This document shows, piece by piece, positions 18,830 to 22,847 of a DNA stretch of 39,684 nt. Every line of letters starts with the position of its first letter. Within the stretch, counting starts at the first letter, position 1. The DNA lies in the IMG/VR virus record IMGVR_UViG_3300000292_000030, positions 1-39,684 of that record. One strand, given 5' to 3'. Under the pieces are notes generated by a model. The model was not told the DNA's origin. It worked only from the letters and a program-made list of their open reading frames with translations, and searched no databases. The DNA is from a virus. Position numbers and translations under genes: made by a program.

Positions 18830-18887
18830 TTACTGACAATTTACTGACCAGTTAAGTTTTTACTGACAAAACTGACAATTTACTGAC
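18830..18887 (+). repeat. attP arm-type repeats, P' arm (TTACTGAC x4 plus one ACTGAC), abutting and overlapping the integrase 3' end
   Basis: TTACTGAC occurs at 18830, 18841, 18860 and 18880, and AACTGAC at 18870, all in the same orientation as the P-arm copies. Confidence 0.6.
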
Positions 18888-20007
18888 TTAGTATATTGTC
18901 AATTTTGTCAACTGCTATCTTATCATTTTCCTTAAAAGCGTGCGCGTAGATTTTTAATGTAATAGATATGTCGGAATGACCCACGCGTTCTGATATTGTT
19001 TTTACATCTACACCAGATGCAACTAACATAGAAACATGAGAATGTCTTAATGCATGTAGCTTTTTAAATTCAAGTCCGATTCTTTTAATAAATCGTTTAA
19101 AAGTAATATCTAGATTATACGGATTATAATAATTGTTATTGCTGTTTATGCATACTGTGTCATATTCTTTTTCTTTCATTAAACCTTGTAATTTTAATTT
19201 ATTTTGTCTTAATTTCTCTTTTTTTAACATATCAAAAACATGATCTGGCAGAGTGATGCTTCTTATTGACGATTCACTCTTTGGTTGCTTCATGATATAT
19301 TTGCCCTCTATGTATTGTAAATTGTATTGAATTTTTATAGTTTTATTTTCGAAGTCTACACAATCCCATGTTAAACCTAAAACCTCACCACGTCTTAGAC
19401 CTCCATAAATCAAAAGCTTTATAGTATTTTGAAAATATATACTTTCACTTTCTAAAGCGTTTAGTATCTGTTTTATTTCTTCTATCGAATATATTTCTTC
19501 TTCGTGTGTTTTATTGTTCTTCGGAAAGATAATAAAATCAGTAATCCTTTTATTTATCTCTTGTAATCTGTATGCTTCATTTAGCACAGCATTGCATAAT
19601 TGCATTATTTTTCGTTTTGAACGATAAGCTAAATCTTTTTGAAACACATAATTAACAAATGTTTGATATTTATTTACAGTTATGTCACTTAATTTCATAT
19701 TTCCCCAATAAGGTTCGACATGTTTTTTTACGATACTTTTCGCACAAGCAATAGTATTTTCAGATATCCCTAACTTGCTATCGTAATATCGATAACAGCG
19801 ATTTGTAAAAGAAATGTTACTCGGCAAAGCATAAATATCATTATTTATACTATTTTTAACTTCTATTAATTTTTTATCTGCATCTTTTTTATTTATAAAA
19901 CTACCTTGCGACTTTTGTTTCTTTTTGCCAACTTCATCTATATATTCTACATATACATAATATTTGTCATTTCTTTTACGTATAAAACTACTTAAGATTT
20001 TTTCCAT
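18880..20007 (-). CDS. int: tyrosine recombinase / phage integrase
   Basis: 375 aa. The catalytic region reads GLRRGEVLGLTW ... HALRHSHVSMLVASGVDVKTISERVGHSDISITLKIYAH (R..HxxR..Y pattern). An N-terminal SAM-like arm/core-binding region is present. Confidence 0.9.
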   Translation of the reverse strand: MEKILSSFIRKRNDKYYVYVEYIDEVGKKKQKSQGSFINKKDADKKLIEVKNSINNDIYALPSNISFTNRCYRYYDSKLGISENTIACAKSIVKKHVEPYWGNMKLSDITVNKYQTFVNYVFQKDLAYRSKRKIMQLCNAVLNEAYRLQEINKRITDFIIFPKNNKTHEEEIYSIEEIKQILNALESESIYFQNTIKLLIYGGLRRGEVLGLTWDCVDFENKTIKIQYNLQYIEGKYIMKQPKSESSIRSITLPDHVFDMLKKEKLRQNKLKLQGLMKEKEYDTVCINSNNNYYNPYNLDITFKRFIKRIGLEFKKLHALRHSHVSMLVASGVDVKTISERVGHSDISITLKIYAHAFKENDKIAVDKIDNILSQ

Positions 20008-20060
20008 TGGTAACCCTCCTAATTAAAAAGAGCAGCTGGTAAAACTGCCCTGATGTTTAT

Positions 20061-20576
20061 CTATAATTTTAATATTTGTTCTTTTTTATTTTCATATTCT
20101 TCTTCAGTTATAGCACCCATATCTAGAAGTTTTTTGAATTTCATTAATTCATCTGCATCACTTGATATATTTTGACTTCTATAGTTATTTTTATTTTCTA
20201 TATAGTTCTCTATATATCCTTTAATTTCTAATATTTGTTCATTATCTTTTTTAGTGAAAGAAATAGTATTTTCATCTTGTACCGCATTAAAAACTCCGCC
20301 TTTAGCCTCTTGGCTACCCATTAATATTATTTGTAGATATCCAGTAGTTAAACCAGGTTTTTTATATTGTACTCCTGTTACATTATCTAAACAGATTTTC
20401 TTTGTACCTGTAAATCCTTTATTTATCGAATTCATAATTCCTTTAGCGGTAATAGAAATAAATTTCCCTTCTAAGACAATTTCATATTTGCCGTTTGATT
20501 TTAAATTGTAAACTTTTTTAGAAGTTATAACTTGTCTTTCATTAGATTTATCTTTTTTAGATTTAAATAATCCCAT
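20061..20576 (-). CDS. bacterial PH (YokE-like) domain + SHOCT domain protein, function unknown
   Basis: The C-terminus ELMKFKKLLDMGAITEEEYENKKEQILKL is a SHOCT motif. The central GYLQIILMG...ISF block resembles bPH/YokE-like domains. It sits in the int-proximal moron slot. Confidence 0.55.
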   Translation of the reverse strand: MGLFKSKKDKSNERQVITSKKVYNLKSNGKYEIVLEGKFISITAKGIMNSINKGFTGTKKICLDNVTGVQYKKPGLTTGYLQIILMGSQEAKGGVFNAVQDENTISFTKKDNEQILEIKGYIENYIENKNNYRSQNISSDADELMKFKKLLDMGAITEEEYENKKEQILKL

Positions 20577-20915: not shown

Positions 20916-21032
20916 ACTAAAATATTCCAAAAAGGTCGTATTAGATAGTATAATAAGACTATACAAAATATTTTGTAATTTACATATACTATATATCTGA
21001 AAAATAGTATATAATATATGTAAACGATTAAT

Positions 21033-21048
21033 TAGAACGTATGTTCTA
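21033..21048. promoter_or_regulatory. candidate LexA operator (Cheo/SOS box, GAAC-N4-GTTC)
   Basis: Perfect palindrome TAGAAC GTAT GTTCTA, downstream of TATAAT (21010..21015) and upstream of the SD and ATG of ORF 21075. Confidence 0.5.
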
Positions 21049-21074
21049 TGATTTAAGGGGGAATAATCTGGAAT

Positions 21075-21182
21075 ATGAAAGAAAAATTAATAAATGCAAT
21101 AAAAAATCACAAATTAGATCACAAACATTTAAATGAAGTTATAAAGCTAGCTAAAGAAGAATTAAATAAAACAAAAGACTAG
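21075..21182 (+). CDS. 35-aa helical, basic protein downstream of the SOS box (candidate small antirepressor / switch modulator)
   Basis: GGGGG SD lies 13 nt upstream. Translation: MKEKLINAIKNHKLDHKHLNEVIKLAKEELNKTKD. It ends inside the bidirectional terminator. Below the ORF-track cutoff. Confidence 0.4.
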   Translation: MKEKLINAIKNHKLDHKHLNEVIKLAKEELNKTKD

Positions 21183-21203
21183 GGATTTCCTAGTCTTTTT
21201 TTA
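21175..21203. terminator. bidirectional intrinsic terminator shared by the convergent ORFs 21075(+) and 21528(-)
   Basis: A 9-bp stem (aagactagg / cctagtctt) flanked by an A-run on the 5' side and a T-run on the 3' side. Confidence 0.75.
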
Positions 21204-21528: not shown

Positions 21529-21643
21529 TAAAATGCACTTTATCTATAAATATGTTATAAGTTAATTATACTTATATATTCTCTATTTATGCAAATTTTC
21601 CTCGCCTTTTTGGAATAAAATCGAAAAATTTTAGTCAAAACAC

Positions 21644-21671
21644 TTGACAGGCTAATTTAATTTGCTATAAT
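21644..21671 (+). promoter_or_regulatory. early rightward promoter (PR-like)
   Basis: TTGACA (21644..21649), a 16-nt spacer, then TGcTATAAT (extended -10; TATAAT at 21666..21671). (A/G)ATTTGC motifs at about 21660 and 21694 and on the opposite strand at about 21592 are candidate operators. Confidence 0.65.
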
Positions 21672-21995: not shown

Positions 21996-22847
21996 ATGGA
22001 TTGTATAAACGAAATGAATAACTTAGTAGCAAGTATAGATGTAAAAGAATATGAAGGTCAACCAGTAGTTAGCAGTAGAGAGGTAGCTAATAATTTTGAA
22101 AAGCAACACAAACATGTACTTGAATGTATAGAAAATTTAAAAGAGGGGGTAGCCGAAAAATCGGCAGACCTATTTATAGAAAGTAAATATCAACATCCAC
22201 AAAATAAACAATGGTACAAAGAATACTTACTTACTAGAGATGGATTCAGTTTACTGGTAATGGGATTTACTGGAGCAAAAGCATTACAGTGGAAACTTAA
22301 ATATATAGAAGCATTCAACAAAATGGAACAATACATAAAAGAACAGAAACCTAAGTTACCAACTACATACAAAGAAGCATTGCAACATTTATTAGTGCAA
22401 GTTGAAGAAAATGAAAGATTAGCACTAGAAAATAAACAACAAACAAAAGTCATAGAGAAACAATCAGAGGTAATTGGAGAAATGGCTCCAAAAGCAGAGT
22501 ACTTTGATGCTTTAGTAGATAACAACTTACTTACAAATATAAGAGATACTGCTAAAGAATTAGGAATAAAAGAAAGAACTTTTACAGAGTGGTTAATTCA
22601 AAAGAATTTATGCTACAGAGATAAAAAAAGAAAAATTAAACCTTATGCAAATAAGATGAAGTACTTTGAATTAAAAGAATTTACAACTGCTTGGGGACAT
22701 AGCGACACACAAACACTTATAACTCCTAGAGGTAAAGAAACCTTTAGATTACTTCTTATAAAAGATGGATTAATAAAAGATCATAACAAGCAATTAGAGT
22801 TAGGATTACCAGTTAACGAAGTTACAAAATCAGATTTTTATAATTAG
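21996..22847 (+). CDS. antirepressor-type regulator (Rha N-domain + KilAC/ANT C-domain)
   Basis: The N-terminus VVSSREVANNFEKQHKHVLECIENL is Phage_pRha-like. The C-terminus EYFDALVDNNLLTNIRDTAKELGIKERTFTEWL is KilAC/ANT-like. Confidence 0.8.
   Translation: MDCINEMNNLVASIDVKEYEGQPVVSSREVANNFEKQHKHVLECIENLKEGVAEKSADLFIESKYQHPQNKQWYKEYLLTRDGFSLLVMGFTGAKALQWKLKYIEAFNKMEQYIKEQKPKLPTTYKEALQHLLVQVEENERLALENKQQTKVIEKQSEVIGEMAPKAEYFDALVDNNLLTNIRDTAKELGIKERTFTEWLIQKNLCYRDKKRKIKPYANKMKYFELKEFTTAWGHSDTQTLITPRGKETFRLLLIKDGLIKDHNKQLELGLPVNEVTKSDFYN

Follow-up and report, generated by a model that had tools for sequence, protein, structure and literature searches.

The IMG/VR virus record IMGVR_UViG_3300000292_000030, analysed here over its whole length of 39,684 nucleotides (nt; henceforth the window), contains a region that is a prophage lysogeny module (table 1). 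The genes of this module follow each other in the order integrase, a DUF4429/SHOCT cargo gene, a gene for a protein of 65 amino acids (aa) with a helix-turn-helix (HTH) domain, an open reading frame (ORF) of only 35 codons, a cI-like repressor gene and, past a promoter, cro and a gene for a protein combining Rha and ANT/KilAC domains. We deal mainly with the 35-codon ORF (the micro-ORF), with a palindrome in front of it that is a predicted operator of the SOS regulator LexA, and with the repressor gene, which is convergent with the micro-ORF. A first-pass annotation, made from the DNA letters alone, had proposed that this small unit conveys the SOS response to the lysis–lysogeny switch of the phage. 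As argued below, this is probably its role, and the repressor that it faces can be related to AimC of Bacillus phages.

Table 1. Features of the lysogeny module, with positions in the window.
Feature	Position	Strand	Basis
Tyrosine integrase	18880-20007	-	Annotation of the window
XRE-type HTH gene, optional, 65 aa	20685-20882	+	Pfam HTH_3/HTH_26
-10 hexamer TATAAT of the micro-ORF promoter	21010-21015	+	Read from the sequence
Predicted LexA (SOS/Cheo) box, TAGAAC-GTAT-GTTCTA (TAGAACGTATGTTCTA)	21033-21048	none	Sequence, matrix score and conservation
Shine-Dalgarno run GGGGG	21057-21061	+	Read from the sequence; GGGG block invariant in all alleles
Micro-ORF, 35 aa (MKEKLINAIKNHKLDHKHLNEVIKLAKEELNKTKD), proposed AimX-like antirepressor	21075-21182	+	ORF and conservation in ten alleles
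Bidirectional intrinsic terminator, common to micro-ORF and repressor gene	21173-21199	both	Terminator scan
cI-like repressor, AimC homologue, 112 aa	21190-21528	-	Pfam HTH_3/HTH_19; PDB profile and fold match
Early lytic PR-like promoter, TTGACA-16-TATAAT with TG	21644-21671	+	12/12 consensus match
Cro-like HTH protein (AimL position), 74 aa	21744-21968	+	Pfam HTH_3; also called at 74 aa on related contigs
Rha + ANT/KilAC protein, AriS-like domain pair	21996-22847	+	Pfam Phage_pRha and ANT

Conservation of the micro-ORF

The stop codon of the micro-ORF lies 8 nt from that of the convergent cI gene, and the two genes share an intrinsic terminator, a hairpin (12 and 11 pairs) with T-runs on both strands that was scored as a terminator in both directions, in agreement with the first-pass annotation. 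To collect relatives of the unit, the 65-aa HTH protein and an alignment of cI were used as queries against viral contigs, and contigs with genes for cI homologues were looked up as well; ten diverged alleles and 13 diverged promoter regions for alignment were obtained in this way. The ten micro-ORF alleles encode peptides of 30-40 aa that are 24-97% identical to the one in the window, and every one of them starts behind a conserved G-run, keeps its frame open through in-frame indels and stops just before the terminator. The comparison confirms the ORF that had been marked at the ATG at position 21075 and supports its status as a real gene conserved as an ORF, which in all likelihood is expressed. 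The exact 35-aa peptide was found in 1185 blocks of a public assembly collection, its surroundings being mosaic prophages that differ in cargo and have a recombinase of either the tyrosine or the serine type. The encoded peptides are charged, predicted to be helical and not hydrophobic, and hence are not type I toxins. Between near-identical copies of one micro-ORF type (type A), 3 changes are synonymous and 2 non-synonymous, numbers too small to decide by.

The palindrome as a predicted LexA box

Both the TATAAT hexamer and the palindrome reported by the first-pass annotation are present where claimed. The palindrome (TAGAACGTATGTTCTA) has perfectly complementary 6-nt arms around a GTAT spacer that is itself non-palindromic, and it starts 17 nt past the -10 hexamer, so it should be close to the transcription start. 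Its core, GAACGTATGTTC (21035-21046), conforms to the pattern GAAC-N4-GTT(C/T) with an AT-rich spacer by which LexA boxes of Bacillota are recognised. The optimum for LexA of Bacillus subtilis is CGAACATATGTTCG, and a variant with an ATAT spacer found in relatives of the window has the same core. An exact GAAC-N4-GTTC motif occurs only once in the window, but 0.24 occurrences are expected by chance, and after shuffling 22 windows out of 100 had at least one. The mere presence of the motif is therefore weak proof of function, much as the first-pass annotation had cautioned.

That annotation had suggested scoring the site with a LexA matrix of the host clade. The host is probably Intestinibacter bartlettii, a member of Peptostreptococcaceae, the family of Clostridioides difficile, because in contig L012 (L numbers denote the contigs and loci compared) a serine recombinase gene interrupts an ABC-transporter substrate-binding gene that is named by NCBI for this species. 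We thus used a symmetrised matrix derived from 11 C. difficile sites to which, in the form of oligonucleotides, LexA of this species bound stably in surface plasmon resonance (Walter et al., PMC4234289). The box scores 16.8 bits, within the range of these experimentally bound sites (10.1-18.1 bits, median near 16.5), and exceeds the runner-up site of the window (11.8 bits) by 5 bits; the same score was attained in 7 of 200 shuffled windows.

More decisive is the behaviour of the box in relatives. All cI relatives of at least 53% identity for which enough downstream DNA is available keep it, 140-185 nt past the cI stop codon, and in these relatives it is the best matrix match of the whole locus. 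Its arms, (A/C)GAAC...GTTCT, are invariant, while nine different 4-nt spacers occur between them (GTAT, ATAT, ATAC, ACAC, AAAC, ATTT, GTAC, TTTT and GTGT). Five blocks are the same throughout the promoter alignment, namely AAAAT (5' of the -10 hexamer), TATAAT, GAAC, GTTCT and GGGG; the flanks differ, and the gap between the -10 hexamer and the GAAC core ranges from 10 to 19 nt through indels. Half-sites that are kept around a free spacer are what would be predicted for a LexA operator.

The same layout, i.e. box, Shine-Dalgarno (SD) sequence, convergent micro-ORF and short HTH repressor, recurs with unrelated peptides in three other phages or loci. These are the C. difficile phage CDMH1 (also written phiCDHM1; HG531805; L108 2836-3011), with a box of 16.7 bits and an unannotated 46-aa ORF; the Terrisporobacter phage TPELB_ph1 (PP197244; L107 2797-2981), with a box of 15.8 bits overlapping the -10 hexamer and an unannotated 35-aa ORF; and the metagenomic locus L082, with a box of 17.2 bits and a 39-aa micro-ORF. 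In CDMH1 and TPELB_ph1 the micro-ORF adjoins an AimC-like repressor gene. A factor that all hosts of these phages with their unrelated micro-ORFs would have in common, namely LexA, is the most economical candidate for binding the box. Matrix score, invariant arms with a variable spacer and recurrence before unrelated micro-ORFs together bear out the reading of the palindrome as a LexA box, which in our view is very probably functional.

Some related arrangements deserve mention here. In TPELB_ph1, a hypothetical gene on the opposite strand (CDS0032) covers part of the ORF and of the box and may be a mis-call. The Bacillus phage AP631 (Wbetavirus; L109 2827-2949) encodes an annotated hypothetical protein of 40 aa, AP631_0030, convergently with an AimC-like repressor, i.e. 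in the position of aimX; its repressor is 34% identical to cI of the window, and a LexA box is absent there, in agreement with a published remark that many extended arbitrium systems are devoid of one.

The repressor as a homologue of AimC

The ORF of 112 codons assigned to the cI-like repressor by the first-pass annotation stands, but the start may have to be moved to Met7, the choice of gene callers on many contigs, which would leave 106 aa. In an AlphaFold model of the protein (pLDDT 88), residues 2-66 form an HTH domain of five helices, which a linker joins to two helices at the C-terminus (residues 81-91 and 95-111). A Pfam scan found HTH families only, with no Peptidase_S24 domain in the repressor and no M78/ImmA-type protease adjoining it, and the earlier view that the repressor has no room for autocleavage is thereby upheld.

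The best full-length profile match of the repressor in the PDB (E 4e-13, reaching residue 137 of 142) is 9IAQ, the AimC protein of the Bacillus phage BMBtp14, which is also the top fold match (TM 0.62-0.65, 31-32% identity). ImmR (7T8I) scores better by sequence (E 1.3e-19) but the match spans the HTH domain only; further matches are the phi106 repressor with AimX (9SF2) and SinR/SinI (1B0N; rank 5 by fold, full-length by sequence). Judged by profile and predicted fold, the repressor is a full-length homologue of AimC. It also shares the general make-up of AimC-type repressors: a length between 80 and 140 aa, an N-terminal HTH, a linker, a helical C-terminus and no autocleavage domain.

This relationship is informative because of what has been reported for the Bacillus proteins by Kabel et al. 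(bioRxiv 10.1101/2025.11.23.689978). AimC-type repressors are unresponsive to RecA; they are inactivated by AimX, a protein of 29-80 aa encoded convergently with aimC, which binds the C-terminal domain of AimC to form a heterodimer that blocks oligomerisation and DNA binding. The same authors found very few close homologues of AimC and AimL outside arbitrium systems within Bacillus. In phage phi106, aimX is repressed by LexA, as concluded from a lexA(ind-) allele and from mutation of the box (Aframian et al., bioRxiv 10.1101/2021.09.20.460909).

Joint variation of peptide and repressor tail

If the micro-ORF peptide acted on the repressor in the manner of AimX, the C-terminal tail of the latter would be its target. 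Indeed, micro-ORF identity is correlated with the identity of the cI tail (Spearman 0.65, Mantel p 0.0008); with that of the cI HTH domain there is no such correlation (rho 0.08). Three or more types of micro-ORF exist, in step with the repressor tail, and a natural chimera (L111 1501-1956) has an HTH domain 100% identical to that of the window together with a tail and a micro-ORF that are both of type B. This pattern of sequence change is consistent with the cI tail being the target of the peptide. SinI-like mimicry of the first tail helix by the peptide (IKLAKEEL compared with IKLAEQL) was also considered and rejected: the resemblance is no better than that of shuffled sequences in 7 of 8 pairs, and hhalign gives it a probability of 0.1%.

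A probable DNA-damage input for the lysis–lysogeny switch

We infer binding of LexA to the box, translation of the micro-ORF and interaction of its peptide with the repressor, and the following course of events can be envisaged. In the lysogen, host LexA would occupy the box, just 3' of a promoter recognisable by its -10 hexamer only, and keep the 35-codon gene silent. Upon DNA damage, active RecA would bring about self-cleavage of LexA and the micro-ORF promoter would fire, giving a short transcript that would stop at the shared terminator and code for the helical, charged 35-aa peptide. The peptide would then bind the oligomerisation tail formed by the two C-terminal helices of the 112-aa repressor, and the repressor, trapped in a heterocomplex, would no longer oligomerise on operators between positions 21529 and 21740. 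As a result, the PR-like promoter would open and the cro operon, comprising the genes for Cro and Rha/ANT and those for recombination and replication, would be transcribed.

We regard it as probable that the unit is the DNA-damage input of the switch and that it operates in this way, including anti-repression through the cI tail. The first-pass proposal of the micro-ORF as the SOS input is thus supported by sequence analysis, namely by the box, by the conserved ORF, by an apparently uncleavable repressor of the AimC type and by the location of the Rha/KilAC gene in the cro operon. The last point also agrees with the earlier distinction between the micro-ORF and the Rha/KilAC antirepressor starting at position 21996: being encoded inside the cro operon, the latter acts after the switch and hence cannot be its primary trigger.

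Several observations nevertheless weigh against this interpretation. A promoter scan 16-18 nt 5' of the TATAAT hexamer found no convincing -35 hexamer, so the micro-ORF promoter may be weak or dependent on an activator. The GGGGG run and the ATG at 21075 are both present as first described, but the gap of 13 nt between them is long compared with the 6-7 nt of other alleles, a point that the first-pass annotation needs to have corrected. The matrix derives from C. difficile, a member of the host family, and the SOS boxes of I. bartlettii itself may differ. As for the peptide, Pfam and PHROG offer no family for it and no homology to Tum, Gfo or Ant; an exhaustive phmmer search of 1.84 billion representative proteins returned only its own cluster and low-complexity noise; and a profile of nine micro-ORF alleles matched nothing relevant in the PDB, the phi106 repressor–AimX structure 9SF2 included. 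AimX proteins have been reported as highly divergent. Finally, the co-variation of peptide and tail could arise by physical linkage alone, because the region coding for the tail abuts the micro-ORF.

It is also conceivable, though in our view unlikely, that box and micro-ORF are real while the peptide targets LexA, RecA or some other function of the phage or the host that is timed by the SOS response. Small phage proteins that modulate this response do exist, such as gp7 of phage GIL01 (PMC9700832) and the KilAC domain of AriS, which down-regulates the SOS response in Listeria (PMC9043618), and the micro-ORF peptide has no homology by which its function could be fixed. However, a target in the host would predict conservation of the peptide, whereas its three or more types track the repressor tail rather than the constant host. 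A co-repressor of LexA would moreover be needed during lysogeny, precisely when LexA would repress the micro-ORF, and the locus parallels the AimX/AimC pair in where its ORF lies as well as in the homology of its repressor.

Action of the LexA-controlled transcript as an RNA, by convergent transcription or as an antisense to the repressor mRNA, with the peptide being incidental, appears improbable. The micro-ORF is convergent with cI, and action as an RNA was an earlier model for aimX, but here a strong terminator acting in both directions lies between the two genes, and frame, SD sequence and length of 30-40 aa have been kept through in-frame indels in the ten alleles. In phi106 and phiW23, recoded alleles and alleles with stop codons showed the protein and not an antisense RNA to be the active agent.

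Still harder to reconcile with the comparative data is the notion that the palindrome is the operator of a dimeric phage HTH protein (the 65-aa HTH protein, cI or Cro), the unit then being independent of the SOS response and similar to the modules of a transcription factor and a small ORF (TF-smORF) known from Vibrio and Aeromonas plasmid phages (PMC10432266). Any palindrome of 6+6 nt could bind an HTH dimer, and an XRE-type gene lies directly 5' of the micro-ORF unit. Yet the box is kept in L060, L063, L068 and L073, which have no 65-aa HTH gene, and this gene is likewise missing from the gene calls of L111 and L116; the recognition domains of cI and Cro vary among alleles while the arms of the box do not. 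Because the box persists without the 65-aa protein and across differing cI and Cro specificities, it is very improbably an operator of a phage regulator, and the 65-aa protein in particular was dismissed as its binding factor, its gene being dispensable. In addition, the cI–cro region and the DNA 5' of the HTH gene contain no second copy of the motif (the runner-up per locus scores below 10 bits), and phages of other genera have the same GAAC-N4-GTTC in front of micro-ORFs that are unrelated. A chance palindrome beside a spurious short ORF in AT-rich DNA, for which the shuffled windows reaching the exact motif (22/100) or the matrix score (7/200) might speak, is effectively refuted by arms, -10 hexamer, SD sequence and ORF that are invariant over ten diverged alleles with variable sequence between them, and by the recurrence of the layout in three unrelated phages.

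Comparison with known systems

The closest counterpart of the proposed DNA-damage input is the AimX–AimC–AimL set of the Bacillus phages phi106, phiW23, BMBtp14 and Wbeta. The two have in common a short HTH repressor with a helical C-terminal oligomerisation domain and no autocleavage, an ORF of 29-80 aa (35 aa in the window) immediately 3' of the repressor gene and convergent with it, and a divergent cro-like gene that heads the early lytic genes (in the window, the 74-aa HTH protein behind a consensus promoter). With phi106 the window also shares a LexA site 5' of the small ORF as the DNA-damage input, in our case a predicted one. Differences exist as well. The host is a gut commensal of Peptostreptococcaceae (Clostridia) and not Bacillus, the micro-ORF has no sequence similarity to AimX, and the upstream slot holds the optional 65-aa HTH gene. 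No AimR or AimP is encoded in the window, where the 65-aa HTH gene, the DUF4429/SHOCT gene and the integrase gene lie upstream, nor in the relatives examined; a scan of 13 ORFs of at least 250 aa gave no TPR/AimR-like match, the three largest ORFs (1181-1290 aa, presumed tail genes) lying outside the scan. LexA would thus be the only recognisable input, and the module, lacking the AimR/AimP components by which arbitrium is defined, is not a member of that group; by analogy, it would rather work like the arbitrium core, with a repressor that is homologous to AimC.

LexA-repressed antirepressors are well known from Gram-negative phages, examples being Tum of coliphage 186, GfoA/GfhA of the Gifsy phages, AntC of N15 and Ant of SPC32H. 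There, as proposed for the window, cleavage of LexA frees a small protein that non-covalently inactivates a repressor not cleavable with the aid of RecA, and the hallmarks of that type, a (predicted) LexA operator at the antirepressor promoter and a repressor without a cleavage domain, are found here. In contrast, neither the peptide nor the repressor is homologous, the operator in the window is of the Gram-positive type, and the peptide is far smaller (35 aa), its gene being convergent with the repressor gene and abutting it. SinR of B. subtilis (1B0N) resembles the repressor in having an HTH domain and a two-helix C-terminal oligomerisation tail, and its small helical antagonist SinI forms a heterocomplex with that tail, as we propose for the micro-ORF peptide. 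However, SinI is homologous to the SinR tail, whereas the micro-ORF and the cI tail have no detectable similarity; SinI is not controlled by LexA, and the switch in question is a chromosomal developmental one and not that of a phage.

The TF-smORF modules of linear plasmid phages described by Silpe et al. (Nature 2023, PMC10432266) likewise include a small ORF without homologues that is proposed to inactivate cI non-proteolytically, adjoined by a small XRE-type gene. Those modules are independent of the SOS response, the transcription factor activates a divergent small ORF and cI is cleavable with the aid of RecA; in the window, a dispensable HTH gene precedes the micro-ORF in tandem, a predicted LexA box accompanies the promoter and cI is devoid of a cleavage domain. 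The first-pass annotation had further cited gp7 of the Bacillus thuringiensis phage GIL01, a LexA co-repressor that is indeed a small LexA-linked protein of a Gram-positive temperate phage. This analogy is a poor fit, since gp7 is needed in lysogeny, when it is present and strengthens LexA binding, while the peptide of the window would appear only after LexA is gone; GIL01 also has no cI-type repressor, in contrast to the cI/Cro switch found here.

The literature that we searched contains no paper describing such a module for Clostridia, but as the same design is known from Bacillus phages, we view the unit as a well-supported new example and not as a new principle, useful for annotation and for the biology of gut phages although hardly surprising to a specialist. 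It offers an answer to the question of how an abundant group of human-gut prophages with an apparently uncleavable repressor may sense DNA damage, and it would carry anti-repression of the AimX/AimC kind beyond Bacillus and beyond arbitrium signalling. On a broader scale, we tentatively suggest, with rather more doubt than confidence, that LexA-gated, tail-specific and hitherto unannotated micro-antirepressors are the general SOS sensor of AimC-type repressors without S24 or ImmA in prophages of gut Clostridia, phiCDHM1 of C. difficile among them, that the combination of LexA box, micro-ORF and convergent repressor is ancestral, with arbitrium grafted onto it later by Bacillus phages, and that the pairs of micro-ORF and tail recombine independently of the HTH domain, as in the chimera L111. 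Were this true, such pairs would delimit 'induction-specificity groups' that differ from immunity groups, and prophages residing together would not need to cross-induce each other. The cultured phages phiCDHM1 and TPELB_ph1, both with LexA-box micro-ORFs, make the idea genetically testable. Attention is also drawn to genes of 30-46 aa as a class that escapes annotation pipelines or is placed by them on the wrong strand.

Genomic surroundings of the unit

The 65-aa HTH gene sits in tandem 5' of the micro-ORF promoter and may be a second input, an immunity gene or an activator of the promoter without a -35 hexamer. A stretch of 25 nt located 5' of the micro-ORF -10 hexamer (20966-20990) has a direct similarity of 80% to one near the cI start (21548-21572); cI might have an operator here through which the micro-ORF promoter, too, is controlled, or the match may be due to chance in AT-rich DNA, and the similarity is not conserved in relatives without the HTH gene. 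Recombination breakpoints also occur between the -10 hexamer and the box (L045/L064).

Upstream of the unit, the recombinase–switch slot is highly mosaic (window 18880-20576, compared with L001-L020): it holds either a tyrosine integrase or a serine recombinase, and its cargo varies between DUF4429/SHOCT, a 212-aa Rv1352-like protein, a 141-aa protein and a pair of TPR and zinc-ribbon proteins. On the other side, the Rha/ANT gene is followed by genes for YqaJ, RecT and a DnaB-like helicase, and terminase, portal and capsid genes are found elsewhere in the window. In relatives, the N-terminal domain of the Rha/ANT protein is swapped (Rha, Bro-N or AntA), and sometimes two such genes are present. 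A megablast search with the whole window against cultured phages gave a single match of 123 nt, to an antirepressor gene of phiCD27, and thus no close DNA relative, and a scan of genome contigs with cI gave distant HTH relatives only.

More distant prophages (L075-L079, L088-L090 and L093) encode cI-like repressors of 120-124 aa, the repressor gene being followed in L078 by an ImmA-like gene. They have a LexA-like box of 14-18 bits about 40-100 nt 5' of the integrase gene, just past a terminator (e.g. L075 4075-4092), which suggests either that the integrase is under SOS control or that the attachment junction includes a conserved site. Finally, in a regulatory setting that is different although the repressor family is the same, L112 and L113 (1501-1950) encode a cI relative of 149 aa in which the C-terminal tail is duplicated, and there an array of three HTH genes is followed by an M78 peptidase gene.

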